From positions 324,710 through 388,709 of the forward strand of contig CAWCIE010000012.1 in NCBI GenBank assembly GCA_963795475.1: 64,000 nucleotides of DNA, written 5' to 3'. The notes below the pieces were generated by a model, which worked only from the letters and a program-made list of their open reading frames with translations, did not search any database and was not told where the DNA came from. The translations under genes and the position numbers were made by a program. Shown in pieces: positions 43,881 to 62,307 of the stretch. The stretch comes from an uncultured Gammaproteobacteria bacterium. Its GTDB lineage: Bacteria > Pseudomonadota > Gammaproteobacteria > Steroidobacterales > Steroidobacteraceae. Each line of letters starts with the position of its first letter. Within the stretch, counting starts at the first letter, position 1.

Positions 43881-44266
43881 GCAGCCATGCCTTCACCGCA
43901 CCGCTCGCGGGCGAGTCATATGGAAGCCGCTGCCACGACACGGTCGCGAATCAATCACGCTGGTAACCCCGCTGTCCAGGTTCATGTCCTGGGCTCGAAT
44001 TCCCGGGACTGGACCGGAAGCTTTGCGCCCTCGTCTTGCAACGAGTTTGCCCTGATCAGACCTTATGCAAAATCGCACACTGCACGCCGGAGTGTCAACG
44101 CGCGGGGCTTTGCTTTGCGGAGTAATCAGTATGACTTGGCGCACATTCGTGGAAATTTTCCGCCATACGCAATGGCGATCGCATGGGAGAGTCGGAGCTT
44201 CGCGCCGCGTAACGCGTCGCCGCTGTCTCCGCCTTGAGACAGTGTTCGCGCGCCGAAGCGCCGGAG

Positions 44267-44295
44267 CTCCGTTCCGGCGCGAAGCCGGAACGGAG
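44267..44295 (-). terminator. 12-bp stem-loop directly after the DUF1501-like gene (no U-tract)
   Basis: CTCCGTTCCGGC-GCGAA-GCCGGAACGGAG begins 17 nt downstream of the inferred stop at 44312. It is followed by a ~390-nt region that looks non-coding. Confidence 0.35.
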
Positions 44296-44311
44296 GTGCG
44301 CAGACCGAGCG

Positions 44312-45977
44312 TCAGCCGGGTACTTTGCCGTTCACCAGGCTCGCGAGCGGGTTGTACATGATGAGCGGATCGAGAACGCGTCGCGCCGGACCCGAGGGTA
44401 TTGTTGGTCGGCGTGTTCGGCCAAAGGTTGGGCCACAAGGAAACAGCCGACGTGCCGTGCAGTGCCATGTAATTGAGCACGACCATCTGCACCAGATTCG
44501 GCACGTTGTTGCCGGCCGGGCTCGAGGTCGTGTTCTGCGAGCCGTCCGGATTGAAGTACCCGAGCTGCAGGCTCATCTCGGGATTGGTTTGTGCGGGCGT
44601 CGGCTTCGCCTTGGGGTCGTAAACCAGGAAGTAGGTGGCCGCGACGTTCTGATTGTCGGCGGTCCACACGCCTTTGCCGCGTCCGCCGACGGAACTGTCG
44701 ATGGTGCCGTCGCTCGCGAGCGAGCCGTCGCTGAATATGTAGATCATCACGGGTTTGCCCTGGATGGCCGCGTACTGAAGCACGGCGCCGATACACTGGC
44801 CGGCGGAGAAATCGCGGGCCTCGCCGGTCGCGCGCTCGCCCGTGTGGTAATCGAAGCCCCCGAGCTCGATGGTGCCGGCGGCGGCATCGCCGTCGACCAC
44901 GAGCTTCATGACGGCGGCGGTCTTCTGGAAATCGCTGCTCCCTTGATATTCCGCCGTCTGGAAGATGCCGCTCGAGCCGACGATATTCGGATCCAAGTCC
45001 GGATCGACCGCCCCGGGGCTCGGATACCGGTTCAGCAGATAGGCCGCCTTGGTGTAGGCGCAAGTCTGGGCCTGGACCGCGGCGGCCTGCAACGCCGCTC
45101 CGTTCGGAATCGAGCTCGCGTAGGCCGACACGCCGGAGTACTTGGCATCGCTGATCCGCTTCATGGATTCGAGCACGTTGGTCACGTCAGTCGTCTGCGT
45201 CTCCGGGTTCGGCGGATTGGGGAGCAATGTGCTCAATTGACCCGTGCTGACGAGCCCGGAAGTATCGGCGCCGCTGTCGATCGTGCTCGGCTGCGCCGCC
45301 ACGTTGATCATGCCGGGAGGCGACATGGAGTTCCCACCCGAAACCGAGCTGTCGGTGCCGATGAGATCGAGCAGCGCTCCGCGCGCGCCCGCCTGCCAGA
45401 TGCCGTACATCGGATTGTGCGGATTGGTGTTGGTGTCGTTCTGCGAGAGCGCGGGAATGATCGTTCCCGTGACCTTGGCGGCCGCGGCGGCGTTGGTGAA
45501 CTTGGTCTTGATGCCGCGCAGCTGCGCGCTGTCGGAATGGTAGCGCAGCCCGAGGGTCGCGTCGACGAAGCTCGCGGCGCTGCTGTTGGGCACCATGGAG
45601 CCCGGCAACCCCAGCTTGCTGTAACCGGCGACGCTCAGGAAGTCGAGCTGGCCGTTCGGACCGCCGACCAGAACGTTCGAGCCGGCGATATTGGCGCCGC
45701 CCGACAGGTCGAAGCAGATGAAGGGAATCATTCCGGCACCCGCCGTGATGCCGCAGGCGGTGACCGCGGTCTGGATGTCGCCAACCAGCGGCGGCTGCGC
45801 CTGCGCAATCCGCGGATTCGCCATCAGGCTGAACACCGAGGGGAGCAGCACCGAGGCGCCGCCTGTCATGAACCCCTGGGCGAGGAACTCACGGCGCGTC
45901 CTCGGCCTCGGATGATCGGGGTGACGAAGCGGCTCATTGCGGCCGAGGCCCTTGGGGATCTTGCGAATAATGCGCAT
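44312..45977 (-). CDS. Tat-exported protein distantly resembling DUF1501; a frame break near the 3' end is inferred
   Basis: - The N-terminus has a twin-arginine signal: MRIIRK...RPRTRREFLAQGFMTGGASVLLP.
- ...IPFICFDLSGGANIAGSNVLVGG and ...IELGGFDYHTGERATG recall the DUF1501 motifs (GGxD... and GGFDTH).
- Track ORF 43893..45977 turns into Arg-rich nonsense after ...NNTLGSG.
- A neighbouring frame reads (A)RRVLDPLIMYNPLASLVNGKVPG* and ends at 44312. Confidence 0.65.
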
Positions 45978-50134: not shown

Positions 50135-52966
50135 ATGAACAAATTTCGCCTTCGTGACTCACGTCACGGTCTCTCGGAGCTTCGCCGAATCATCCGGGCT
50201 GCGTCCCTCGCATTGCCCGCCGCGTTGCTGTTCGCCTGCAGCAGCGCGCCGACCGGGAACGCTCCCGGCGTTGCGGGCGGTCAATCATTGACGCCCGGCA
50301 TCACCAACTACCCGATGGGCTATATCAAGCAGCCGGTACTCGCGGTGAACACCGACAAGCAGAACAAGGCGGCGACTCCGACCGACATCAACGTCGAGGA
50401 CCTCATCACCTCCATCACCGGGAGCGACCTCTACGTGCGCGAGACTGCAAGCGCCTCGAGCCCGGAGGTGAACGTCACCTTCCCGATCACCGGCGGGAAG
50501 GGCGCCGTGCGCGATCTCGACGTGTCGCCGGACGGCACGAAGATCGTGTTCTCGTTGCGCCTGCCGCTTGATCCCACGCTCAAGAACACCGACCCCAAGC
50601 AGCCGAACTGGAAGATCTACCAGTACGATGCGAAGGCCAAGACGGTGACCCAGCTCACCAACGACAGCATCACCAGCGGCCACGACGTGGGCGCCCACTA
50701 TCTGCCGGACGGGCGGATCGTGTTCGCCTCCACGCGCCAGCTCGCGACCCAGGCCATCCTGCTCGACGAGGGCCGTCCCCAGTACCAGGCCGTGACCACC
50801 AATCAGCAGCAGGCGATATTTCTATTGCATGTCATGAACGGCGACGGCTCGAACATGCATCAGATATCGTTCAACACCAATCACGACTTCGCGCCCTCGG
50901 TGCTCGCGAACGGGCAGATCGTGTTCTCGCGCTGGGAGGTGACCAACGGCCAGGACCAGATCAGCCTGTACGTGACCAACCCGGACGGCACGGGCCTGCA
51001 GCTTTACTATGGTGCGAACAGCCACGCCACCGGCGCCAACATCGCGGGTACCAACAATAACGTGATTCAGTTCCTAGGTGCGCGGCAGCGCGCCGACGGG
51101 AAGCTGCTCTCGATCGTCCGGCCCGTGCTGGGAACCCAGCTCGGCGGCGATATAGAGCTGATCGACGCGTCCAACTTCGTGGAAATCAACCAGCCGAGCT
51201 CGCCGACGACGGCCACGGGCGCATCCGGAACCGCGCCGGCCGCGGTGGGGCAAACGGAGGCGACCACGCTCGGCGTGACCACGGACGCCAACATGCCGTC
51301 CGCGGGCGGGCGCTTCTACTCTCTTTATCCGCTGTACGACGGCACCAACCGGATGCTGGTGAGCTGGGCACCCTGCTTGATCCAGACCACCACCGGTACC
51401 ACCGAAGTCTGCAACAGCTCCAATACGACCGGCGCCAACGTGACCCAGGCTCCGCCGCAGTACACGGTCTGGATCTATGACTTCAGCGCCGGCACCTTGA
51501 GTCCGCTGCTCTCGGCGGAGCAGGGCATGGAAGTGGTCGAGGCGGTGGTCTTGCAGGCGCGAACACCCTTGCCGACGTACATCCCGGACTTCATTCCGAC
51601 CACCCCTGCCCAGGAGGCCTTGGTCAACGGTCAGGTCGGCATTCTGAATATCTCGAGCGTGTACGATTACGATGGGATCGATACGGCGAAGCCGGACATC
51701 GCCACCCAGGCGAACCCGGCGCAGGCGAGCTTCTACGCCCGGCCCGCGCGCTTCGTGCGCATCGAAAAAGCGGTCGAAATCCCGCCGAAGACGGTGCGCA
51801 AGCTCGATCAGGCCGATTTTGGGCCCGCCGGCATGGGCATGCGGGAGATCTTGGGCTATGCGCCGGTCCAGCCGGACGGCTCGGTCCAGATTCAGGTGCC
51901 CGCGGAGGTTCCGTTCGTCATCGATGTTCTCGACTTGAATGGCCGGCGTATCACGGCGCAGCACACGAGCTGGATGCAGGTCATGCCGGGCGAGACCAAG
52001 AGCTGCAACGGCTGCCACACGGCCGGCAACCTGAAGACCCCCTCGCACGGGCGCAGCGGCTTGACGGTCGCAGTCAACCAGGGTGCACCGACCACCGGGG
52101 AACCCTTCCCCGGCACCTACAGCGCCTTGTTCGCCAACGCCGGCGAGACCATGGCACAAACGCTCGAGCGCATCAGCTGCGAAACCGGCAGCGCGCTCGC
52201 CGGCCTGCCCGTGCCTTACACTCAGCCCTGCTCGCAAATTCTCGCCACGGATGTGATCTACGCGCCGATCTGGACCGATACCGTCACCACGCCGCAGGCG
52301 GACGTGCTGAATGTGGTCGCGGGAGCGAACGTCTTCAGCTACCCCTATGGTGGCACCTCCGGCATCCCGAGCACGCCTCCCACCAACGGGAGCTGCGCAC
52401 CTTGGAGCGCGCAGTGCCGTATCACCATCCATTACGCGAACCCGGCCTCGAACCCGACGCAGCTTTACATCCAAAATTTGTGGAACGATACGTCGCGGGT
52501 CGCCACGGTGAACGGCGTCGCCAATACTTCGATCACCTGCACGCTCTGTCACAACCCGCTCAGCGCGCAGAATAAGGTCCAAGTACCTGCCGGGCAGCTC
52601 GACTTGACCGGCGTCGCGTCGAGCGGGGCCACAGGCGACAATGACGTGACCCACGTGCAATCGTACGAAGAAGTCTTGTTTTCTCATGACGAACTCACGC
52701 TTAATATGGGCGTGCTGCAGGATTTGACGGTCACCGACCCGGGCCCGCCGCCGACGCAGGTGCCGGTGATGCTGGCGGCGCCGATGGCGGCCGGCGATGC
52801 GGCGGCATCGACTGCCTTCTTGCGAATATTCGATGGGAGCTTCCATGACCCAGTGCTCGATCACACGGGGTTCTTGACGATCGGGGAGATGCGGTTGATC
52901 TCGGAATGGTTGGACATCGGCGGCCAGTACTACAACGATCCGTTCGTCGCCCCGGCTGCGAACTGA
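50135..52966 (+). CDS. 943-aa lipoprotein: PD40/TolB-like propeller plus hydrazine-synthase-alpha-middle-like domain, two CxxCH motifs
   Basis: The lipobox is ALLFAC followed by S. PD40-like repeats include DVSPDGTKIVFS, YLPDGRIVFAS and LANGQIVFSRW. ...ILGYAPVQPDGSVQIQVPAEVPFVIDVLDLNGRRI...WMQVMPGETKSCNGCHT matches the HZS_alpha-type domain as I remember it. The second motif is ITCTLCHNP. Confidence 0.7.
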   Translation: MNKFRLRDSRHGLSELRRIIRAASLALPAALLFACSSAPTGNAPGVAGGQSLTPGITNYPMGYIKQPVLAVNTDKQNKAATPTDINVEDLITSITGSDLYVRETASASSPEVNVTFPITGGKGAVRDLDVSPDGTKIVFSLRLPLDPTLKNTDPKQPNWKIYQYDAKAKTVTQLTNDSITSGHDVGAHYLPDGRIVFASTRQLATQAILLDEGRPQYQAVTTNQQQAIFLLHVMNGDGSNMHQISFNTNHDFAPSVLANGQIVFSRWEVTNGQDQISLYVTNPDGTGLQLYYGANSHATGANIAGTNNNVIQFLGARQRADGKLLSIVRPVLGTQLGGDIELIDASNFVEINQPSSPTTATGASGTAPAAVGQTEATTLGVTTDANMPSAGGRFYSLYPLYDGTNRMLVSWAPCLIQTTTGTTEVCNSSNTTGANVTQAPPQYTVWIYDFSAGTLSPLLSAEQGMEVVEAVVLQARTPLPTYIPDFIPTTPAQEALVNGQVGILNISSVYDYDGIDTAKPDIATQANPAQASFYARPARFVRIEKAVEIPPKTVRKLDQADFGPAGMGMREILGYAPVQPDGSVQIQVPAEVPFVIDVLDLNGRRITAQHTSWMQVMPGETKSCNGCHTAGNLKTPSHGRSGLTVAVNQGAPTTGEPFPGTYSALFANAGETMAQTLERISCETGSALAGLPVPYTQPCSQILATDVIYAPIWTDTVTTPQADVLNVVAGANVFSYPYGGTSGIPSTPPTNGSCAPWSAQCRITIHYANPASNPTQLYIQNLWNDTSRVATVNGVANTSITCTLCHNPLSAQNKVQVPAGQLDLTGVASSGATGDNDVTHVQSYEEVLFSHDELTLNMGVLQDLTVTDPGPPPTQVPVMLAAPMAAGDAAASTAFLRIFDGSFHDPVLDHTGFLTIGEMRLISEWLDIGGQYYNDPFVAPAAN

Positions 52967-53020
52967 CTCAGCCGTAAGCGTATGAACTGATGCGACGTTC
53001 TGCTTGGGCTCATTCTGCTG

Positions 53021-53728
53021 TTGCAGGCGTTGCACCTAGGTGTCGCGGAGGCCGCGAAACGTCCGTTATTGCAGCTGGTGGTGACGGCGCCGTACCTCGA
53101 GATGCACTCGGGACCGGGGCGCGGATTCCCGGTGGTGTACGTGATCGGCCGGGACGAGATCGTCACGGTGCTCTACAGCAGGACCGACTGGTACAAGGTG
53201 CGCGCGCCGCAGGGCGCGGAAGGCTGGGCGCGGCGGCAGGATCTCGCGACCACGAAGCTGGCCGACGGCGAACCGGCACCGATACCGCCCTACCCCGATT
53301 TCGCCAGCCATCGCTGGGAGGTGGGCGCGGGATACGGTGTGTACAACCGGCAGAATTTGGTGACCGCGTATGGCGATTTCGGACTCACGGACAGCATCGA
53401 TGTCGAGGCGGTGCTGCAACAGGCGCTCGGCACGCTCGATAACCGCGTCATCGCGACCATCGGTCTGCGCCACACCTTCATTCCGGAATGGAAATGGTTT
53501 TCGCCCACGGCCGGCCTCGGCACGGGCTATCAGCACATCGTCGACAAGGTGCCGCCGGCCCCCTTGGAGAGCAACAACGAGATGGCCTACGTGTCCCTTG
53601 GCGCCCGCGGCTTCATCACCCGCCGCTTCATGTGGCGCGCCGACTGGCGTCACTACGTGGTCTTCAACAACTTGAACGTATACGAGGATCTAGAAGAATG
53701 GAAAGTCGGCTTTGCAGTGTTCTTTTAG
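53021..53728 (+). CDS. SH3b domain fused to a small outer-membrane beta-barrel (start unresolved)
   Basis: The SH3-like region is ...YLEMHSGPGRGFPVVYVIGRDEIVTVLYSRTDWYKVRAPQGAEGWARRQDL. The barrel ends ...WKVGFAVFF. A good signal peptide (MRR-VLLGLILLLQALHLGVAEA) appears only if ATG 52990 is joined to this frame by a 1-nt shift. Confidence 0.65.
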   Translation: MQALHLGVAEAAKRPLLQLVVTAPYLEMHSGPGRGFPVVYVIGRDEIVTVLYSRTDWYKVRAPQGAEGWARRQDLATTKLADGEPAPIPPYPDFASHRWEVGAGYGVYNRQNLVTAYGDFGLTDSIDVEAVLQQALGTLDNRVIATIGLRHTFIPEWKWFSPTAGLGTGYQHIVDKVPPAPLESNNEMAYVSLGARGFITRRFMWRADWRHYVVFNNLNVYEDLEEWKVGFAVFF

Positions 53729-54369
53729 CGGCGGCTCTGCTGTCCGGCTGCGGCTGGTTCCATCGAGGGGACAAGAAGCCCGTTCAGGTGTCCGCCGAGG
53801 ATCCCGGAGCGGAGCCCACCATCGTGGAACCGCAGGTCACGCGGCGCGAGGTGAAGACCCCCAAGATCAAGGCCAAGGACTTCGAGATGGGAGCGTACTT
53901 CGGGGCGCTCAGCATCGAGGATTTCGGCACCAATCCGGTCTATGGCATCCGGGCGGCCTACCATGTCACCGAGGATTTCTTCCTCGAGGGTTTTCTGGCG
54001 CGGGCGAAGGCCGGGCAGAGCAGCCTCGAAGAGGTGTTCCCGGAGATCACGGTGCTCAGCAACTCTGGGAGACAGTTCACGTACTACGATTTGGACGTGG
54101 GCTACAACATCCTGCCCGGAGAGGTGTTTCTGGGAAGGGGACGGGCCTTCAATACGGCGCTCTACGTCACGGCCGGCATGGGTGACGTGAAATTCGCGGA
54201 CCAGGATCAGTTCGCGCTGAATTTCGGCGTGGGCACGCGGATTTTGATCACCGATTGGCTCGCGCTGCATTTGGACGTGAGGGACCACGTGTTCGAGTCC
54301 AGCCTGTTCGGAGTCGACAAGAACGTACACAACATAGAAGGGACCGTGGGGTTGACGACGTTTTTCTGA
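53698..54369 (+). CDS. Small outer-membrane beta-barrel lipoprotein
   Basis: Track ORF trimmed to MESRLCSVLLAAALLSGC (a lipobox). It has alternating beta-strand patterning and the C-terminus ...NIEGTVGLTTFF. Confidence 0.7.
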   Translation: MESRLCSVLLAAALLSGCGWFHRGDKKPVQVSAEDPGAEPTIVEPQVTRREVKTPKIKAKDFEMGAYFGALSIEDFGTNPVYGIRAAYHVTEDFFLEGFLARAKAGQSSLEEVFPEITVLSNSGRQFTYYDLDVGYNILPGEVFLGRGRAFNTALYVTAGMGDVKFADQDQFALNFGVGTRILITDWLALHLDVRDHVFESSLFGVDKNVHNIEGTVGLTTFF

Positions 54370-54406
54370 GTTGTCTCTGTCAATGGACCAGTATCAGGAG
54401 ATTTTC

Positions 54407-54910
54407 ATGCATAGCTCCAAAGCAAAGTTCCTCACTCGCTGCGCGATGACGGCCATCGTCGCCGCCTCCGCAGCCTTCGCCGGCGATGCCGCCGGCCCCG
54501 CGCCGGCGTTCACGCTGTCCGAGCTCGACGGCAGCCAGGGCGCGCTCGCGCAGTACAAAGGTCAAGTCGTGATGGTGAATTTCTGGGCGACCTGGTGCGG
54601 TCCCTGCCAGCAGGAAATGCCGCTCCTCGACCAGATGTACAGGAAGTACAAGCCCGCCGGATTCACGCTGATCGGGGTAAACGTCGACAAGGAGGCGCCG
54701 CCGGTGAAGGCGCTCCTCGAGCGCAAGCCCGTGAGCTTCCCCGTGATGCTCGATCCCGCGAATCAGGTGTCGAAGGCCTACCACGTGGACGAGATGCCGA
54801 GCTCGGTGATCATCGACCGCAAGGGCGAGATCCGCTACATCCATCGCGGCTACAAGCCGGGCGACGAGAACGAATACCAGGATCGCATTCGCCAGTTGAT
54901 TCGGGAGTAG
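54407..54910 (+). CDS. TlpA/ResA-family periplasmic thiol:disulfide oxidoreductase (canonical CxxC)
   Basis: The signal peptide is MHSSKAKFLTRCAMTAIVAASAAFA. The active site reads ...GQVVMVNFWATWCGPCQQEMPLL. Confidence 0.85.
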   Translation: MHSSKAKFLTRCAMTAIVAASAAFAGDAAGPAPAFTLSELDGSQGALAQYKGQVVMVNFWATWCGPCQQEMPLLDQMYRKYKPAGFTLIGVNVDKEAPPVKALLERKPVSFPVMLDPANQVSKAYHVDEMPSSVIIDRKGEIRYIHRGYKPGDENEYQDRIRQLIRE

Positions 54911-54912
54911 CC

Positions 54913-55158
54913 ATGCCGTCCCTCCGCCGTTCCATCCAATGGGCGGGCGCCGCCCTCATCGCAGGCTCCGGGCTCCTGAGCTCCGCCTGCACCATCCAGC
55001 CCTGGGTGAAGCCGTATGAGCGGGACCGCCTTGCCGATCCCATCATGGCCTGGGATCGCGACGCCATCTCTTCCGCCTACCTGGATCACATCCGCGAGTC
55101 CCGCGAGGGTTCGCGGGGCGCCAGCGGAAGCGCGGGCGGCGGTTGCGGCTGCAATTGA
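54913..55158 (+). CDS. DUF4266 small lipoprotein
   Basis: The N-terminus is MPSLRRSIQWAGAALIAGSGLLSSAC (a lipobox). It continues ...QPWVKPYERDRLADPIMAWDRD.... The C-terminal GGGCGCN is the DUF4266 signature as I remember it. Confidence 0.75.
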   Translation: MPSLRRSIQWAGAALIAGSGLLSSACTIQPWVKPYERDRLADPIMAWDRDAISSAYLDHIRESREGSRGASGSAGGGCGCN

Positions 55159-56363
55159 TGATGAAGGTGTCCGCGCAGCGTATCGTCGGCCGGATGGCGG
55201 TGATTTTCACCGCCCTGCTGCTGGTCCGGGCTACCTGCGCGGATGTCCTGCCCGATGATCGGGCGGACCTCTTTTACAGCAAGTATTCGGGCGGCGGCAT
55301 GGACATCACCGGGGAATCGGTGCTGGTACGCAAGAAATTCACCGAGAATTTCGCGGTCGAAGCCAATTATTTCGTGGACAAGGTCTCGGGCGCGTCGATC
55401 GACGTTCTGAGCCAGGCCAGCCAGATCAAGGACGAGCGCAAGCAGAAGAGCGGCACGGTCGAGTACGTCCACGACAAGACCACCTACACGGCCTCGTTCA
55501 TCAACTCGGTGGAGCGCGACTACAAGTCCGATACCGGAAGCTTCTCCTTGAAACAGGACATGTTCGGCGATCTGACCACGCTGTCGCTCGCCTTCTCGAA
55601 CACGAACGACACGGTCGGCGAGAACAACGGCACGGCATTCGTGCCGGTGATAACCTGGCTCGGGCATGCGGAAAGCCGCAGCTACGACATCGACCTCTCT
55701 CAGATCCTCACCAAGAACTTCATTGCGGGCGTGAATTTCAACGTCATCACCGATCAGGGCTACCTCGCGAATCCCTACCGGTCGGTGCGCTACCTCGATC
55801 CGAGCAACGCCAAGGGCTATTCGCTGGCAAGCCAGGTCTATCCCGACACCCGGACCAGCACGGCGATTCAGGTGGAGGGCAAGTACTACCTGCCCTACCG
55901 CGCGGCGATCACCGCATCGTATCGATACTTCCGCGACACATGGGACATCGTGGGCAATACCTACGAGCTCGACTACACCCACCCCATCAGCAACATCTGG
56001 ATCCTGGAAGGCCGGTTCCGCTATTACAAGCAGAATCACGCGAACTTCTACAGCGATTTGTTCGCGTACGCCGATGAATACCGCTTCGAAGGCCGCGACC
56101 AGGATCTCGCGGCCCAGGAAAATTACACCATCGGCGCGAAGGCGACCTATGCGTTCCTTCCGAACGGCTGGAAGATGTTCAAGCGGGCGACCGTCACGCT
56201 GGACGTGAGCCGCGTGACCTTTCACTATCTGGATTTCACCAACATCAAGTATTACGGCATACAGAGCGGACCAGGAGTGATAGGAGGCTACCAGCCGGGC
56301 AGCGAACCGCTGTATCAGTTCAACGCCACGGTCTTCCAGCTCTATATGTCGATGTTCTTCTGA
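55158..56363 (+). CDS. DUF3570 outer-membrane beta-barrel-like protein
   Basis: The N-terminus is MMKVSAQRIVGRMAVIFTALLLVRATCA (a signal peptide). ...DLFYSKYSGGGMDITGESVLVRKKF...ANYFVDKVSGASIDV... fits my memory of DUF3570. The start overlaps the DUF4266 stop (TGATG). Confidence 0.7.
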   Translation: MMKVSAQRIVGRMAVIFTALLLVRATCADVLPDDRADLFYSKYSGGGMDITGESVLVRKKFTENFAVEANYFVDKVSGASIDVLSQASQIKDERKQKSGTVEYVHDKTTYTASFINSVERDYKSDTGSFSLKQDMFGDLTTLSLAFSNTNDTVGENNGTAFVPVITWLGHAESRSYDIDLSQILTKNFIAGVNFNVITDQGYLANPYRSVRYLDPSNAKGYSLASQVYPDTRTSTAIQVEGKYYLPYRAAITASYRYFRDTWDIVGNTYELDYTHPISNIWILEGRFRYYKQNHANFYSDLFAYADEYRFEGRDQDLAAQENYTIGAKATYAFLPNGWKMFKRATVTLDVSRVTFHYLDFTNIKYYGIQSGPGVIGGYQPGSEPLYQFNATVFQLYMSMFF

Positions 56364-57214: not shown

Positions 57215-58180
57215 TCATGAACGTTTCCGCGGAAACGCCTCACGGGAGCGGTCCGCAAACCTGTTCCTGACCAGCACGCCGATGGCGGGAAAATCCACGA
57301 AGAACCCATCGATACCGCGCGCGAGGTAGCGCTCTATTTCAGCCGGCAGGTCGCCATGCGCGGCAGGGTCCGTTCCGGATTTGAGGTCGTCGGGCAGGAA
57401 TTCGTTCTCCGCCCGGAATGTCCAAACGTGCACCGCCATCCCCGCCTCATGGGCCGCAGCTACGTTCTCCGGGGTGGCGAGCGATTTGGCCACACCGATG
57501 GCATCGGCATACCTCGCCACTCCCGCGATATCCTCGACCTCGTGCTCGAGCAACTGCACGAGCGGCAAGCGCGTCATGCCCCTGAATTGCTTCAAGTTAT
57601 TCGGATCGAATGATTGGATGAACACCGGCGAGCCCGGTGCGGCGTAGCCAAAACGCCCCAGGGTCTCGAGAACAGCCGCTTCCTGGGGCAATCCCAGCGA
57701 TTGGAAATGCGCCGGATGCTTGGTCTCCGGATACACGCCGATCCTGGGCTGACCCTGGCGCAGGCGGTTGGTGTCGACCGCCAGCTGCATGATCTCGTCG
57801 AAGGTCGGCACCTGGAATTGGCCGTCGAACACGGTGTTCGCAGGCCGCAGTGTCGGCAGCCGCTCCCGCGCGCGCAAGGTTTTCAGCTCGGCGAGGGTGA
57901 AGTCCTCGGTAAACCAGCCGTTCATCGTTTCGCCGTCGACGGCCTGCGTACGGCGCCGGCTCGCGAACTCCGGATGGTCCGCCACATCCGTCGTTCCGCC
58001 GATCTCGGGTTCGTGGCGCGCCACCAGTACCCCATCGCGCGTCATGACCAGATCGGGCTCGATGTAGTCGGCACCCTGCTCGATGGCACGCTGGTAGCTT
58101 GCGAGAGTGTGCTCGGGACGCTCGCCGCTCGCGCCGCGGTGAGCGATGACGATTACTGTTGTCGGACGATTGTCGGGCAC
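57215..58180 (-). CDS. Glycerophosphodiester phosphodiesterase (GDPD family)
   Basis: Signatures include ...VIAHRGASGERPEHTLASYQRAIEQGADYIEPDLVMTRDGVLVARHE... and ...WTF. No signal peptide is evident. Confidence 0.85.
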   Translation of the reverse strand: MPDNRPTTVIVIAHRGASGERPEHTLASYQRAIEQGADYIEPDLVMTRDGVLVARHEPEIGGTTDVADHPEFASRRRTQAVDGETMNGWFTEDFTLAELKTLRARERLPTLRPANTVFDGQFQVPTFDEIMQLAVDTNRLRQGQPRIGVYPETKHPAHFQSLGLPQEAAVLETLGRFGYAAPGSPVFIQSFDPNNLKQFRGMTRLPLVQLLEHEVEDIAGVARYADAIGVAKSLATPENVAAAHEAGMAVHVWTFRAENEFLPDDLKSGTDPAAHGDLPAEIERYLARGIDGFFVDFPAIGVLVRNRFADRSREAFPRKRS

Positions 58181-58291
58181 GGAGCACCTGGCGGCAGCCT
58201 TCGCCCTAGTCTAGCTTACGCGCACAGCCGAGGCTCCCCGTGGGAGGAGCCTCGGACACCGCGGGGGCGCGCACCGGCGGCCCCGCGCTTG

Positions 58292-58486
58292 TTACTGTGG
58301 CGGCGCGACCGGCAACGTACTCGTCTCGTACGCAGCCATCACACCATTCGTTCCCGGCGCCCAGCTCGGGCGTTCGATCAGCGCGCTGCTGTCTCTATCC
58401 GCACGTACCGAGACCGGTTGGGCCGCAAATGCCGCTCCAATGGCAAAAGCAGCGACGCCCACGACTACTGCTTTGCGACGGTTCAT
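58292..58486 (-). CDS. Hypothetical 64-aa secreted protein
   Basis: The signal peptide is MNRRKAVVVGVAAFAIGAAFAAQP. The ORF begins 9 nt after the repeat-protein stop. I recognise no family. Confidence 0.45.
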   Translation of the reverse strand: MNRRKAVVVGVAAFAIGAAFAAQPVSVRADRDSSALIERPSWAPGTNGVMAAYETSTLPVAPPQ

Positions 58487-58495
58487 GACGCTACC

Positions 58496-58870
58496 TCACG
58501 CCACGTACGGCGGGTTCGAGCCCGGATCATCGGTCAGCGCCAGGTACGGCGGGTTCGAGCCCGGATCATCGGTCAGCGCCAGGTACGGCGGGTTCGAGCC
58601 CGGATCATCGGTCAGCGCCAGGTACGGCGGGTTCGAGCCCGGATCATCGGTCAGCGCCAGGCATGGCGGGTTCGAGCCCGGATCATCGGTCAGCGCCAGG
58701 CATGGCGGGTTCGAGCCCGGATCATCGGTCAGCGCCAGGTATGGCGGGTTCGAGCCTGGATCATCGGTCAGCGCCAGGTATGGCGGGTTCGAGCCCGGAT
58801 CATCGGCCAGCGCGAAAGCGGCACTGGACACTGCGCAGGCTGCGAACAAAGCGATTAGACTTGCCTTCAT
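58496..58870 (-). CDS. Secreted protein built almost entirely from eight 13-residue tandem repeats (LALTDDPGSNPP[Y/C])
   Basis: The signal peptide is MKASLIALFAACAVSSAAFA. It is followed by 8 x DDPGSNPP(Y/C)LALT. G/C is preferred at the third codon position. Confidence 0.75.
   Translation of the reverse strand: MKASLIALFAACAVSSAAFALADDPGSNPPYLALTDDPGSNPPYLALTDDPGSNPPCLALTDDPGSNPPCLALTDDPGSNPPYLALTDDPGSNPPYLALTDDPGSNPPYLALTDDPGSNPPYVA
58505..58816. repeat. 39-bp x 8 tandem repeat (coding)
   Basis: Units begin at 58505, 58544, 58583, 58622, 58661, 58700, 58739 and 58778. Units 1-4 are identical (GTACGGCGGGTTCGAGCCCGGATCATCGGTCAGCGCCAG). Units 5-6 start GCATGG. Units 7-8 start GTATGG, and unit 7 also has CCTGGA. 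The 3' part of unit 8 diverges. Confidence 0.95.
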
Positions 58871-59036
58871 TTGATTTCTCCGTTATGGTGGTTGACGGGC
58901 CGCCGAAATAACGGCCTCGGCGGTAAAGCGACAATAAGTTGAAATTCCCCTCATGGTGCAGCGCGACATCGATTCATATGCGGCGAACCCTGAGGGATTC
59001 TGTACGGGAACGGCTGAGTAGGGCGGACGATCGGCG

Positions 59037-59601
59037 ATGTTAGTCCCCTCCAATTTCACGCAACTCCTGACCGAGTGGCGCGAGGGCCATCCCCAGGCGC
59101 TGGAGCGCCTGACGCCGTTGGTTTATGACGAGTTGCGCCGTCTCGCGCGTAATTACATGAAGAGGGAGCGGGGCAGATCACACGCTCCAAGCCACCGCGG
59201 TCGTGCACGAGGCGTTCTTGCGGCTCATTCAAGCCAACGTAGCCCTGCAGGATCGCGCTCATTTCTTCGCGCTCGCGTCGCGGCTGATGCGGCGGGTGTT
59301 GGTGGACCACGCGAAGTCACGGGCGCGCATCAAGCGCGGACCGGGGATTCGGGAGCCCGCCACGGAGGACACCATTCCGCCGGCTGCCAGCATCGACGTG
59401 ATTGCGCTCGACGAAGCGCTCGAGGGTCTTCAACAGATGGAGCCTAGATTGGCCCAGGTGATCGAGCTGCATTATTTCGGGGGACTGACCTACGATCAGA
59501 TTGCCGCGGCCGGCGGTGCGTCGGCCGCGACCGTTCATCGCGATATTCGGCTTGCCCGGGCCTGGTTGCTCAACGAGATCGCCGGTCAGCGCTCGACATG
59601 A
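59037..59601 (+). pseudogene. ECF sigma-70 factor (TIGR02999/ECF43-like), one frame break at a G4 run
   Basis: Frame 1 reads [45 protein letters not shown]. At GGGG (59170-59173) the homology moves to (A)[21 protein letters not shown]...[33 protein letters not shown]...ATVHRDIRLARAWL, which is track ORF 59203..59601. Confidence 0.8.
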
Positions 59602-62307
59602 TCCCGCGCACCCGCTGGCAGCGAATTCAGTCGCTCTTCGAGGAGGTCGTCGACGTGCCTGCGCCGGAACGCGCGAGCGTCTTGCGGATTCCTGCGGCGG
59701 CGACGCCGATCTCCAGCGCTCGGTAGAATCGCTGCTCGCATCGGACGAGAGAACCGCGGATCCCTTGATGAACGCGATCAGCGAAGCAGCGGAGTCGCTG
59801 CTCATCGACCATCAGGATCGGCTGGTCGGGACTCGCATCGGACACTACCGCATCGTGTCTGTTCTCGGACAGGGCGGCATGAGCACGGTGTATAGAGGCG
59901 AGAGGGACGACGCACAATACCGGCAAACCGTGGCGATCAAGGTGCTGCATCACACTGCCTTGCACCCCAGGCTCCGAAACCGCCTGCACAGCGAGCGTCA
60001 TATCCTTGCGACGTTGGCGCATCCCTCGATCGCGCGCCTGATAGACAGCGGCGAGCTCGACGACGGCACGCCATACCTGGTGATGGAGCACGTCGATGGC
60101 GAGGCGATCGACTCCTATTGCGACAGCCGCACGCTGTTCATACGCGAACGGCTGGAGATCTTCGTTCAGGTTTGCGCGGCGGTGCAATTCGCGCACCGGA
60201 ACCTGGTCGTGCATCGCGACATCAAGGCCGCGAACATCCTGGTGAAAGGCGACGGCATGCCGAAGCTCCTCGACTTCGGCATCGCGAAATTACTGGCACC
60301 CGAGAGCCTGTCGCACACCGTGCCCGTGACGCGGCTGCAGGAACGCATACTGACCCCCGAGAACGCGGCTCCCGAGCAGGTCCTGGGCCGGCCCATCACC
60401 ACGGCGACCGACATCTACGGCCTCGGCGTGTTGCTGTATCAGCTCTTGACCGGCCGGTCGCCCTATAGATTGCTGAGCTACAGTCAATTGCAGCTCGAGC
60501 GCGCGATCTGCATGGACGATCCGATGCGGCCGAGCCAGATGGTCGTCGCCAAGCTGGGCAACGAGACCGATGCCGATCGAAGCCGCATCTCCGATCGGCG
60601 CGGTCTCTCGCCGCCGCGCCTGCGCGCGAGGTTGAGCGGCGACCTGGATGCCATCGTGTCGATGGCGATGCGCAAGGAGCCGGACCGCCGCTACCCTTCC
60701 GTCGAGGCTCTCGCCGACGATTTGAATCGCCACTTGCAAGGCCAGCCCGTGCGCGCCCGTCAGGGAGACTGGCGATACAACAGCTCCAAATTCATGCGCC
60801 GGCACTTGCTGCCGGTTTTGGCGGTCGGCGCGGCGTTCCTCGGCCTGGCGGTCATCGCGGGGGTGACCTTGTGGCAGAACCATCGGATCGAACTGGCGCG
60901 CGAGGCCACGGCCCAGGAGCGCGATCGCGCTCAGCAAGTTTCAGCGTTCCTGGTGGATGTGTTTTCCGAGGCCGACCCGTTCAAGGCGCAAGGTCACGAG
61001 GCCACCGCCCGGGAGCTGCTCGATCGCGGCGCCGCGAAAATCATCGATAACTCTGCGTTGCAGCCTGAGGTCCGGGCGCAGCTTCTGGAAAGCATCGGGC
61101 TCGCCTATCGCCGCAAAGGCGACAGCGATCGCGCCATTCCGCTGTTCGAGCGAGCCGTGGCTATCCGCCGTTCCGAGCATCCGATGGACAGCCATCGCAC
61201 CGCCGCCGCGCTCGCCAATCTCGCCCGCGCATTGACCGACGGTGGAAATCTGGTCTCGGCGGAGGGGTATCTTCAGCAGGCGCTCGATCTTTCGAAGAAC
61301 GGCGATTCCTCGCCCTCGGTCGAGACCGCGGACATCCTGGTGCAATACGCCCAATTCGAGCTGAGCGCGAAGAGCGATCCGCCGCGCGCCACAAGGCTGT
61401 TCACCGAAGCGCTCGGCATTTACCGCAGTGCATTGGGAAACCAGCACCTTTCGGTCGCCGTGACGCTTGAGCGGTCTTGCATCGGCGGCCCTATGGACGA
61501 ACGATTATGCCTCCGCGGAGCAATACGAGCGGCAGGCAATCGAGATCTTCCAGGCGACGGTGAGCCGCAACTATCCCGACCACGCGGTCGCGTTGGCGAC
61601 CTTGGGCTACGTCCTCACGGAGCGCGGCCAGTACCGCGAGGCGGAGCAGGTGCTCACCGAAGCGTTTCAAATCGAGCGCGCCGTGTTCGGAGAGAACAAC
61701 GACCTGCTCGCGCAGACCGATGCGCAATTTCAGCCTGCTCTACGACCGGCAAGGCGACGAGGCTCGCGCGATCAAGGCGATACGGGATGCGATCGCGATC
61801 GAGGTCAAGGTGCATGGTCCCGACCACTTCTTGACCGGCTACTATCTTGATGGTCTCGCCAATCTCTATCTGAAAACCGGCGATCTTCCGCGGGCCGAGG
61901 ACACCGTACGCCAAAGTTTGGCGGCGCTCACGACCTCCTTGCCGGGCCAGCATCTGTATATCGCCTCCGCGCGGCAGACCCTCGGCGAAGTGCTGTTGAG
62001 CCGCGGGGCGCTCGCGGCCGCAGAGACCGAATTGCGGGCCGCAGTCGATATCAACACCAATCTCGTCGGCGCGGATCATTGGCGCACCGCTCGAAGCGCC
62101 GCGAGCTTGGGCTGGGCGCTGATCAAGAATGACAGGGCCGCCGAAGGCGAGCCGATGCTGGTGAATGCGCGCACGCGGCTCCTCGCGACCGTGGGGCCGA
62201 GTGATCCGGCGACGCAATTGGCCACCGCCCGCCTGGCAGAATACTATCGATCCCGACACCGCGATGCCGAGGCAATGAAGGTTCTCGCGGGCTCCGACAA
62301 GAGGTAA
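59598..62307 (+). pseudogene. Ser/Thr protein kinase with TM segment and C-terminal TPR domain, three frame breaks
   Basis: The ATG overlaps the sigma stop (ATGA). The homology runs as follows.
- MIPRTRWQRIQSLFEEVVDVPAPERASVL, then a shift near 59684.
- ADSCGGDADLQRSVESLL...HYRIVSVLGQGGMSTVY...VAIKVL...HRDIKAANILV...DFGIAKLL..., a TM segment and TPRs, up to ~61466.
- SGLASAALWTNDYASAEQYERQAIEIF..., up to ~61722.
- NFSLLYDRQGDEARAIKAIRDAI... through to the stop at 62307. Confidence 0.8.

Follow-up and report, generated by a model that had tools for sequence, protein, structure and literature searches.

A soil-transcribed operon for a tandem-repeat secreted peptide and a conserved small partner protein in Steroidobacteraceae, encoded next to an ECF43-type sigma factor and a Hanks-type kinase

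Here, we describe a two-gene operon that is transcribed in soil and belongs to an undescribed family confined to the Steroidobacteraceae. It lies in a stretch of DNA of 64,000 nucleotides (hereafter the window) and encodes a secreted precursor built of short repeated units, followed by a conserved small protein which is exported or membrane-anchored. Genomes of 43 Steroidobacteraceae species, all of them metagenome-assembled (MAGs), carry this gene pair at the equivalent location. We further propose, with a rough probability of 0.4, that the divergently encoded ECF43 sigma factor controls the operon and that the exported peptides act on the TPR sensor of the adjacent kinase. The features on which this analysis rests are collected in Table 1.

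Table 1. Features of the operon and its surroundings, in window coordinates.
Feature	Position	Strand	Basis
Terminator-like, G+C-rich 12-bp hairpin past the partner gene, no U tract	58228..58255	-	RNA fold
Partner gene, 64 aa: N-terminal signal/transmembrane helix, then a tail of ~40 aa	58292..58486	-	40 homologous clusters; alignment A1
Repeat-peptide precursor gene, 124 aa: signal peptide and 8 units	58496..58870	-	ORF; homologues P0001 and P0002; equivalent gene at this position in 43 species
Array of 8 x 39-bp units encoding DDPGSNPP(Y/C)LALT; last unit 33 bp plus stop codon	58496..58804	-	Tandem Repeats Finder and unit-by-unit dissection
Signal peptide MKASLIALFAACAVSSAAFA	58811..58870	-	Alignments A2-A4
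Shine-Dalgarno sequence GGAG, 7 nt before the ATG	58878..58881	-	'GGAGcAatca..ATG' conserved in 44/44 loci
5'-UTR stem-loop just downstream of the promoter motif, 9-bp stem CCGCCGAGG / UUUCGGCGG	58900..58923	-	RNA fold, -17.1 kcal/mol
Bipartite promoter-like motif TGAGGGGAAT-N11-GTCGCTT, ECF-like, not sigma-70-like	58926..58953	-	Aligned upstream regions of 44 loci
ECF43-type sigma factor gene, one extra base at 59174	59037..59601	+	PF07638 on both halves
Hanks-type Ser/Thr kinase gene: cytoplasmic kinase domain, one transmembrane segment, ~450-aa periplasmic TPR domain	59598..62307	+	Pkinase and TPR_12/TPR_10 matches
Neighbour genes: GDPD, HiPIP, VanZ-like membrane protein, DUF3570, DUF4266, redoxin, outer-membrane barrel protein, Ysc84, sigma/kinase pair			

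Results

The precursor gene and its repeat array

Tandem Repeats Finder called the array at 58499-58813 with a period of 39, 8.1 copies, 97% matches and a score of 567. The minus-strand frame translates as MKASLIALFAACAVSSAAFA-LA-(DDPGSNPPYLALT)x2-(DDPGSNPPCLALT)x2-(DDPGSNPPYLALT)x3-DDPGSNPPYVA*, which bears out the initial annotation in describing a Sec-type signal followed by a mature part of repeats alone. At the DNA level, the 39-bp units are 95-100% identical and vary at three sites only. Unit position 9 (CCG or CCA, silent) sets unit 2 apart, position 24 is CCA in units 1-4 and CCG in units 5-8, again a silent difference, and position 26 turns TAC into TGC in units 3-4. The identical run comprises protein units 5-7, not units 1-4 as had been stated, while unit 8 is truncated and ends differently. 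The Tyr codon is TAC throughout the array, and the alternation of TAC with TAT that had been described comes from CCA-TAC having been misread on the opposite strand.

Two open reading frames on the plus strand (58440..58874 and 57614..58858) were rejected, as conservation and the excess of silent changes both track the minus-strand frame. Across the variable sites within arrays, 87 silent changes were counted versus 52 amino-acid-changing ones, and this dominance of silent changes supports the minus-strand coding frame. The possibility that the opposite-strand frames represent the true coding sequence was thereby settled in favour of the minus strand. It is hardly credible that the whole array is an artefact of misassembly or that the true gene lies on the other strand. 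Such a view could draw on the long open frames of the plus strand, on the 1-nt indels scattered over the window and on the breaks of short-read contigs within the array; assembled contigs of public runs do break there, and the depths of the multiply placed pieces cannot be converted to a copy count. However, dozens of independent assemblies contain arrays of 4-12 units at this location, among them MAGs with contigs of hundreds of kb to 2.5 Mb. In addition, the signal peptide and the core motif are preserved family-wide in the minus-strand frame, along with its silent excess, and RNA contigs cover the operon.

An unannotated family with a short functional unit

The family comprises about 170 metagenomic protein clusters, none of them annotated and, where named at all, always as 'hypothetical'. 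A profile search of 1.84 billion representative proteins returned 29 representative clusters at 50% identity and no relatives beyond the family. Scans of both small proteins with Pfam and NCBIfam gave nothing but a sub-threshold match to Beta-APP (PF03494), which covers 8 residues, reaches 21.3 bits where the cut-off is 25 and was dismissed as spurious. The statement that no family with this repeat is known therefore holds for the curated libraries (Pfam, NCBIfam), but not overall, given this unannotated family. The absence from these libraries can be attributed to the tiny size of the genes and to arrays that break short-read assemblies. A search of the literature on tandem-repeat secreted peptides in Steroidobacteraceae and Proteobacteria likewise yielded nothing relevant.

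In about 42 of 45 loci, the precursor architecture lies directly upstream of the partner gene. Members consist of a conserved signal peptide and 1-12 copies of a unit of 10-16 residues with the core D-x-P-(P/G)-x-x-P-P-x, in which D1, P3, P7 and P8 are nearly invariant and positions 2, 5, 6 and 9 are free. A single copy is found in 16 of 42 loci, where the mature peptides measure about 13-22 aa. Since many species carry only one copy, the functional part is the unit itself, and the product is better understood as one short peptide motif than as a repeat protein per se, as it was first presented.

The Tyr/Cys site of the window corresponds to position 9 of the unit, the most variable position of the family (H, R, K, Q, N, D, S, Y, W or C, mostly His or Arg). 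Accordingly, the Tyr/Cys alternation does not mark a special site of modification, a possibility that the initial annotation had raised. The presence of His at position 9 in about 70% of unit types, with Met often flanking the units, could also be read as the mark of a periplasmic metal or redox peptide whose His and Met residues bind metal, in keeping with the nearby HiPIP and redoxin genes. This reading is very unlikely, considering that position 9 also accepts the nine other residues listed above, that each unit holds one His at most, and that the neighbouring genes are separate transcription units, some of them on the other strand.

A comparison of the window with a close relative (locus L003) showed amino-acid identities of 54% for the units, 90% for the signal peptide, 97% for the partner and 98% for the kinase domain. 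Between close species, the divergence of the units far outpaces that of the signal peptide, the partner and the neighbouring genes. Copy number also differs between close relatives, so that the array behaves as a variable-number tandem repeat between species: 3 units in L041 versus 5 in L044, with signal peptides identical in DNA and protein; 5 in L038 versus 4 in L045; and 6 in L022 versus 9 in L026 by motif count, again with identical signal peptides. Thus, arrays expand and contract by duplication and loss of units and are homogenised within a genome, while the non-core positions, the Tyr/Cys site included, turn over quickly between species. The ongoing slippage or gene conversion suspected from the near-identical units agrees with this combination of identity within the array, divergence between species and differing copy number.

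The signal peptide

The signal of the window precursor is of the Sec type and 20-22 residues long, with the layout MK / ASLIALFAACAV / SSAAFA, i.e. a positively charged n-region, a hydrophobic h-region and small residues at -3/-1, a pattern kept across the family. By rule of thumb, which is the only basis on which the Sec signal and its cleavage were judged, candidate signal peptidase I sites follow SSA(A) or AFA. Alignments A2-A4 revealed M1, S4, L5, L8 and A13 as invariant and K2, A7, C12, S16 and F19 as nearly invariant. A plain Sec signal leaves the conservation of Cys12 unexplained.

Cys12 is present in more than 90% of members and stands in a lipobox-like context, many of the members matching the lipobox [LVI][ASTVI][GAS]C (e.g. 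LIAGC, LVTGC or ITAC). Proline-rich repeats suit extended spacers. The product might thus be an envelope lipoprotein or tether, a small lipid-anchored polyproline-II spacer, variable in length, that resides in the periplasm or on the outer membrane and would not be diffusible. We consider this unlikely. Only 11 residues precede the Cys, fewer than is usual for a lipoprotein signal, N occupies -3 in some members (NTAC), and the Cys is missing from the signal peptides of L021 and L043. Furthermore, a textbook signal peptidase I c-region (SSA/AFA) comes after Cys12, and the single-copy members would leave a spacer of about 25 residues only.

The partner gene

In the window, the partner starts 9 nt past the stop codon of the precursor, and one metatranscriptome contig runs across the gene junction; the small signal-bearing ORF reported at this place is therefore confirmed and co-transcribed. 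Alignment A1 showed a conserved W-x-PGTNGVMAAYE motif and a C-terminal APP(Q/R) in the tail of the protein. AlphaFold2 predicted a helix at residues 2-21, with a block mean pLDDT of 92-94, and the remainder at low confidence.

The gap between the two genes amounts to 4-21 nt in most loci, with the ribosome-binding site overlapping the stop codon. Together with the consecutive prolines in every unit, this spacing would suit a regulatory upstream ORF, whereby proline-rich translation (PP-x, EF-P-dependent and possibly Sec-force-sensitive) sets the translation of the partner and the peptide itself is functionless. That explanation appears highly improbable: members have anywhere from 1 to 12 copies, both the complete signal peptide and the unit in its entirety are under selection, and, in contrast to known Sec-monitoring arrest peptides, no secretion component is encoded downstream.

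It is also quite unlikely that the operon produces a competition peptide, that is, secreted antimicrobial or interference units released from an apidaecin-like multi-copy precursor, with the partner as immunity protein or export helper. The combination of a small secreted peptide with a small membrane-helix protein in one operon and the quick diversification between species are compatible with such a role, and the I-P-x-x-x-P-P-H of some units presumably recalls proline-rich antimicrobial peptides, a resemblance that we take as a lead only. However, the units are acidic or neutral instead of cationic, no dedicated exporter or modifying enzyme is encoded nearby, and the partner stays 97% conserved while the peptide diverges, which differs from a matched toxin/immunity pair.

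Promoter, leader and expression

The motif TGAGGGGAAT-N11-GTCGCTT was invariant in nearly all aligned loci, with one copy per locus and a single occurrence in the 64-kb window; no copy was detected ahead of the sigma gene or of any other gene. A sigma-70 promoter scan of 58100-59100 did not detect any candidate. The 5'-UTR hairpin recurs at the same place in nearly all loci with differing stem sequences, and no Rfam match was obtained for the operon or its leader. A simple terminator scan made no call on the hairpin behind the partner gene. When metagenome contigs were scanned for the promoter motif, about 48 of the 80 loci examined turned out to be family loci, and the remaining ones resemble chance hits, some of which came up repeatedly in unrelated low-GC organisms; no second regulon member was recognised among these 80 loci. 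The ECF43 literature examined offers no target promoter consensus for comparison.

In four soil or rhizosphere metatranscriptomes, contigs covered positions 58224-58883 only, and none was specific to the flanking genes. The contig of run X28 ends at 58224, near the terminator-like hairpin, and one contig covers both operon genes. Expression of the ORF, a point raised by the initial annotation, is thus supported by soil RNA for precursor and partner alike.

The divergent sigma factor and kinase

The initial annotation placed the pair opposite an ECF sigma factor and a kinase. Both were found, as a PF07638 sigma factor and a kinase with a TPR domain, but the frameshifts in the two window genes had been overlooked. 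The extra base of the sigma gene, judged against L003 and runs X1-X3 and X6, sits just upstream of the motif equivalent to DAED, and the kinase gene, compared with L003 and runs X1-X3, shows 1-nt indels at 59678/9, 61465 and 61726. Altogether, four frame-breaking indels, either real or due to sequencing error, fall into the sigma and kinase genes of the window while the peptide operon is intact, an observation which speaks against the mechanism discussed below.

Intact orthologues exist in related loci. The sigma factor of L001 scores 191.9 bits with TIGR02999 (cut-off 126), while that of L003 has 187 aa and the kinase of L003 has 902 aa. ECF43 factors are defined by QTTA/STTA replacing DAED in region 2.2 (PMC13147305, PMC8999054). 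The L003 orthologue has QATA where DAED stands in other ECF sigma factors, and hence carries the uncharged Thr motif that is the hallmark of this group. The first 4 nt of the kinase gene overlap the end of the sigma gene, no anti-sigma gene is present, and the divergent arrangement is kept in every locus with enough flank. At the same time, synteny is kept over more than 8 kb across the whole clade, and therefore adjacency alone is weak evidence of a functional link.

The kinase has a cytoplasmic N-terminus and a single transmembrane segment, and the TPR domain, lying beyond this segment, is thus placed in the periplasm. Its closest relatives in the PDB are the TPRs of kinesin light chain (E = 1e-14). 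Kinesin light chain TPRs bind short linear peptides. Between the window and L003, this domain is 96% identical, in contrast to the units given above; binding, if any, must therefore rest on the invariant core of the unit.

Discussion

A working model

The operon is transcribed divergently from the sigma/kinase pair and has an invariant ECF-like promoter of its own, which makes it a plausible regulon target, in agreement with the initial proposal; we infer this from arrangement and promoter. In our model, the Hanks kinase would activate the ECF43 sigma factor by phosphorylation, and this factor would read the invariant promoter. The exported peptides, whole or cut into units, would then work in the periplasm or outside the cell, where they would most likely bind the periplasmic TPR domain of the kinase and close a feedback or cell-to-cell loop. 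Extra copies of the unit may raise dose or valency.

A bolder version of this model has a small yet appreciable chance of being right. The system would be the first extracytoplasmic peptide ligand system for an ECF43/Hanks kinase, in which units of 10-13 residues, free or as a multivalent chain, bind the kinesin-light-chain-like periplasmic TPR domain. It would operate as an autocrine or quorum-type loop, with the fast-evolving positions setting lineage specificity.

Comparison with known systems

The sigma/kinase pair resembles EcfK-PknS of Xanthomonas citri and EcfP-PknT of Vibrio parahaemolyticus, sharing a PF07638/TIGR02999 sigma factor, QATA for DAED, the overlapping kinase gene and the lack of an anti-sigma gene (PMC13147305, PMC8999054). 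As in PknS, a cytoplasmic kinase domain is joined by one transmembrane segment to periplasmic TPRs, but the TPR domain here spans about 450 aa, compared with three repeats in PknS. In the PknS/EcfK pair, the periplasmic TPR domain is required for signalling, while the signal is unknown (PMC13147305). The studied ECF43 pairs are known to control a type VI secretion system and polymyxin resistance. None of these pairs has been described with an adjacent gene for a secreted peptide, and here the only conserved promoter of the divergent region drives the mini-peptide operon.

The logic, though not the sequence, recalls the RRNPP systems (Rap/Phr, PlcR/PapR, NprR/NprX), in which a small Sec-exported precursor lies beside a TPR regulator and the short peptide evolves fast and is species-specific. 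However, RRNPP receptors reside in the cytoplasm and sense a peptide that has been re-imported, whereas the TPR domain described here is periplasmic, fused to a Hanks kinase and found in a Gram-negative organism; RRNPP precursors are also not tandem arrays, and the two share no sequence similarity. RRNPP-type signalling was set aside, given a periplasmic TPR domain and no linked oligopeptide permease.

A further comparison is with MgrB-PhoQ and CpxP-CpxA, where a small protein that is exported or sits in the membrane, and whose expression the pathway controls, acts back on the periplasmic side of the sensor. Those systems are not homologous to the present one; they are two-component systems without repeats instead of an ECF43 factor with a Ser/Thr kinase. 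A feedback of the MgrB or CpxP kind fits the partner, with its helix and short tail, as well as the peptide.

The precursor layout, a signal peptide followed by tandem short proline-containing peptides in variable copy number, is shared with yeast alpha-factor, plant CLE/CEP peptides and insect apidaecin. The dibasic or dipeptidyl processing sites of those eukaryotic precursors are absent here, and no processing protease was identified. The G-x-N-P and P-P-H of the units bear what we take to be a loose resemblance to eukaryotic multi-copy peptides. Mimicry of plant CLE/CEP was set aside, as only the loose G-x-N-P resemblance, with a register shift, speaks for it. Similarly, bufferins and multi-core RiPPs have small precursors with a Sec signal, sometimes several cores, and some lie next to ECF sigma factors. 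Unlike in those cases, no MNIO/DUF692, radical SAM, YcaO or similar gene was found within about 10 kb, in the window or at related loci, and a RiPP reading was rejected because no modifying enzyme is nearby.

Significance

If the link to the kinase fails, the precursor would be one more small secreted protein, restricted to its lineage and without an assigned function. It is also a rare bacterial example of a Sec-exported precursor with variable copies of one short peptide, for which the single-copy relatives define the functional unit. Which cues act on the periplasmic sensor domains of ECF43-linked Ser/Thr kinases has yet to be established, and for PknS the signal is explicitly stated to be unknown (PMC13147305). 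The conserved peptide described here is expressed in soil, its gene lies only a few hundred bases away from such a sensor and is preceded by an invariant promoter of the alternative-sigma type, and it is a concrete candidate for a signal of this kind.

The repeat array and its partner

The minus-strand locus is a real transcribed operon that encodes an exported precursor, with 1-12 copies of a short proline-rich motif across the family, and a conserved small partner; we have little doubt that the gene and its family are real. Tandem Repeats Finder detected a single array in the window, and translation gave MKASLIALFAACAVSSAAFA-LA followed by eight DDPGSNPP(Y/C)LALT units, the final one ending ...PPYVA before the stop codon. 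The secreted repeat protein with a small ORF just downstream, as described in the initial annotation, was thus confirmed, with corrections. The units differ from one another at just three sites: a CCG/CCA change in unit 2 and a site with CCA in units 1-4 and CCG in units 5-8 are both silent, whereas at the third site units 3 and 4 have TGC in place of TAC. Tyr is always encoded by TAC, and the alternation with TAT claimed earlier came from misreading CCA-TAC. The variants fall into blocks of adjacent units (1-2, 3-4 and 5-8), as expected if neighbouring units duplicate locally.

Positions of the operon, its surroundings and small insertions or deletions in the window
Feature	Position	Strand	Description
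Hairpin past partner gene	58228-58255		12-bp, G+C
Partner ORF	58292..58486	-	64 aa; starts 9 nt past the repeat-gene stop codon
Repeat gene	58496..58870	-	signal peptide and eight units
Repeat array	58499-58813		period 39, 8.1 copies, 97% matches
Codon 12 of repeat gene	58835-58837	-	Cys
Leader hairpin	58900-58923	-	directly past GTCGCTT box
Bipartite motif	58953-58926	-	candidate promoter
Sigma gene	59037..59601	+	ECF43-type
Kinase gene	59598..62307	+	Hanks kinase-TPR
Indel, sigma gene	59174		one extra base
Indel, kinase gene	59678/9		one missing base
Indel, kinase gene	61465		one extra base
Indel, kinase gene	61726		one extra base
Indel near end of gene 43893..45977 (-)	44378		extra frame-breaking base vs X1
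Further single-base indels	43933, 52998, 58262, 58884-58886
Envelope cluster	50135-56363		conserved
Insertion, DUF3570 gene	56268-56285		18 nt, in frame, vs L003 and X1

Coding strand and evolution of the units

Among the rival readings are a regulatory upstream ORF and an artefact, both very improbable. Across 22 arrays, 87 within-array variable sites were silent and 52 lay in amino-acid-changing codons, a strong excess of silent changes for the minus-strand frame. The possibility that the opposite strand carries the true coding sequence therefore did not hold. Long plus-strand ORFs across the array were rejected as by-products of the G+C-rich repeat, since the silent-change excess follows the minus-strand frame.

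DNA identity among the units of one genome is 87-97% for most arrays and 95-100% for that of the window, whereas units of close species are far less alike. Between the window and L003, a close relative with intact sigma and kinase genes, amino acid identity is 97% for the partner, 98% for the kinase domain, 96% for the TPR domain and 90% for the signal peptide, and falls to 54% for the repeat unit. Copy number also differs between close species (3 in L041 vs 5 in L044, with an identical signal peptide; 5 in L038 vs 4 in L045). The ongoing slippage or gene conversion proposed initially fits these comparisons, which indicate concerted evolution of a variable-number array whose non-core positions change fast.

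The Tyr/Cys position is the most variable of the family: His predominates there, Arg comes second, and Lys, Gln, Asn, Asp, Ser, Tyr, Trp and Cys occur as well. Among close relatives of the window, it is Tyr in protein cluster P0133 and in contigs of the soil metagenome X1, Trp in P0121 and a contig of metagenome X2 (window 58699-58700; DDPGSNPPWLALT), and His in loose ends of X2 and of a third metagenome, X3. The position cycles among aromatics, Cys and His in this sub-clade, as the Trp of X2 and P0121 illustrates. The suggestion of a special modification site found no sign in its favour, the position simply being the most variable. No peptide-modifying enzyme is encoded near the operon in the window or related loci. 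A metal-binding peptide is a further alternative for the product.

Promoter, leader and transcription

In an alignment of the 200 nt before the start codon at 44 loci, the bipartite motif TGAGGG(G)AAT-N11-GTCGCTT is invariant; it lies ~60-80 nt ahead of the ATG, with a variable leader and a conserved GGAG in between. Each locus has a single copy of the motif, as does the whole 64-kb window, and a scan of the operon region showed no sigma-70-like promoter. The form of the motif resembles that of an alternative (ECF-type) promoter; no published ECF43 promoter consensus was found for comparison. Nearly every one of the loci L001-L045 carries the leader hairpin, whose stem sequences differ between clades at the same place, which looks like covariation. 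This hairpin matches no Rfam family and may stabilise the 5' end or have a regulatory role. In the single-copy clade (L010-L031), conserved near-palindromes, AGGGCTTTCCCCT and CATTG-N5-CAATG, lie ~20-60 nt upstream of the promoter motif, adjoining its -35-like box in the short stretch that the operon has in common with the divergent sigma gene; they may serve as binding sites for a regulator or as the promoter of the sigma gene itself.

Operon words are present in more than 20 soil and rhizosphere metatranscriptomes. When four of these were mapped onto 57900-59500, contigs covered only 58224-58883, an interval comprising the repeat gene, its partner and a few leader bases. Within the mapped stretch, no contig covered the sigma/kinase side, and the GDPD side yielded only a short conserved patch continuing into unrelated sequence. 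One 301-nt contig spans the partner into the array, so that both genes are co-transcribed, and one RNA contig stops at 58224, just beyond the downstream hairpin. These contigs count against the possibility, raised initially, that the ORF is not expressed. Although contig depth is a poor gauge of level, this operon-restricted coverage argues for real RNA and expression above the neighbours.

A narrow family of exported peptides

A word-indexed search with the repeat protein recovered only three relatives. Two share the signal peptide, followed by five DDPGV(N/S)PPR(V/L)ALA or four more divergent units, and both are flanked by an ECF sigma gene on one side and a 64-aa ORF homologue on the other. 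Partner homologues, easier to detect, form 40 clusters. Scanning one genome per species gave 43 loci, all in metagenome-assembled genomes labelled Steroidobacteraceae or else mostly uncultured Gammaproteobacteria. At ~42 of 45 loci a family-type ORF precedes the partner, in most ending 4-21 nt before it, with the signal consensus MK-x-SL-x-AL-x-x-AC-AV-(A/S)-SS-AF-A and one to 12 tandem units, 10-16 residues long and most often of 13 or 11, around the core D-x-P-(P/G)-x-x-P-P-x. Multi-copy examples are L003 (5 copies of DDPGTAPPHVILA), L004 (12 of DDPGTAPPRxALA), L026 (9 of DDPGMNVPRL(T/K)), L030 (11 of DITGVNAPRLT) and L035 (6 of MDTPPTSPPHASV); 16 loci are single-copy, such as MNFSLAALITASAITSSAFG-FDFPPINPPHAAA.

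A family profile retrieved 172 clusters at 90% identity, none with a Pfam domain and every name given being "hypothetical". When 1.84 billion representative proteins were searched exhaustively with a profile, no more than 29 clusters at 50% identity came up, each of this same kind, and neither Pfam nor NCBIfam holds a model. We conclude that the family is real and narrow and has escaped annotation; the earlier statement that the repeat belongs to no known family is correct for Pfam and NCBIfam, but an unannotated family of 172 clusters exists. A further sequence, P0003 (GCA_015689235.1, 845-bp contig), is a predicted 121-aa protein with a PD40/Tricorn_N-like N-terminus running into two units (…LTDDPAVNPPRLALTDDPGVNPPRYR), which may stem from a chimeric assembly or reflect a shared LTDDPG motif.

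Since the mature peptide of single-copy members is only ~13-22 residues long, the proline-rich motif itself would be the working part, and arrays would raise its dose or valency. Less likely, the product could be a competition peptide that the partner helps, or a lipid-anchored envelope spacer, a reading prompted by the nearly invariant Cys12.

The signal peptide is unusually conserved overall. Cys12 lies in its middle and is nearly invariant across ~200 family members, in a lipobox-like context (e.g. LIAGC, LVTGC, ITAC), yet just 11 residues from the N-terminus. AlphaFold2 modelled the partner as an N-terminal helix with a low-confidence tail. Its conserved W-x-P-G-T-N-G resembles the unit start D-D-P-G-(T/S)-N, and the signal regions of both proteins end in AAFA; it is possible that the partner arose long ago as a copy of the peptide gene and has since diverged.

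The neighbouring sigma factor and kinase

The divergent gene encodes an ECF sigma factor of the PF07638/TIGR02999 type by profile matches, and its intact orthologue carries QATA at the place occupied by DAED in ordinary ECF sigma factors. Such a replacement is the hallmark of ECF43, in which a Thr is phosphorylated by the neighbouring Hanks kinase (PMC13147305, PMC8999054). The neighbouring sensor thus has the features of ECF43 systems. The kinase gene overlaps the sigma stop codon, and in its intact 902-aa orthologue the kinase domain is followed by a positively charged stretch, then by one transmembrane segment (LLPVLAVGAAFLGLAVIAGVTLW) and lastly by ~450 residues of TPR_12/TPR_10 repeats. 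By sequence, the closest solved relatives of the TPR domain are those of kinesin light chain (E = 1e-14), which bind short linear peptides. Following the kinase domain and a single transmembrane segment, the TPR domain should lie in the periplasm, like that of Xanthomonas citri PknS, which is required for signalling and whose signal is unknown (PMC13147305).

The gene order kinase-sigma, then divergently peptide-partner-GDPD-HiPIP-small membrane protein-DUF3570, is kept at every locus with enough flank, so that adjacency weighs less than in a shuffled neighbourhood. In every related genome with enough flank, synteny with the peptide locus extends to the envelope cluster, which encodes a large HZS_alpha/PD40 protein, an outer-membrane barrel protein, a redoxin, DUF4266 and DUF3570; the DUF3570 insertion lies amid a substitution cluster.

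Compared with L003 and contigs of three or four independent soil metagenomes, four indels break the sigma and kinase frames in the window, while its other indels vs L003 are in-frame or non-coding. The X1 strain, whose units are Tyr-type, lacks them in this region. Dropping base 44378 restores a natural C-terminus. As the assembly carries scattered 1-nt indels, the four are probably assembly errors too; the alternative is strain-specific decay. Even so, four frame-breaking indels in 3.3 kb vs one in the ~20 kb compared with X1 is an enrichment.

A possible peptide signal for the kinase

The chance that operon transcription depends on the adjacent ECF43 sigma factor, which would read the promoter, is about even. 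The peptide, the partner or both would act on the periplasmic TPR domain as feedback or a cell-to-cell signal, although TPR binding by the products seems rather unlikely. The operon is alike in logic to TPR-sensed peptide signals of Gram-positive bacteria, to MgrB and CpxP, small feedback peptides of envelope kinases, and to eukaryotic multi-copy propeptides, but shares no sequence with them, and it lacks the defining features of RRNPP and RiPP systems. We give a probability of roughly one in five to the product being a periplasmic peptide ligand for an ECF43 kinase. We infer that the product is a small secreted peptide whose gene lies next to that of its probable sensor.
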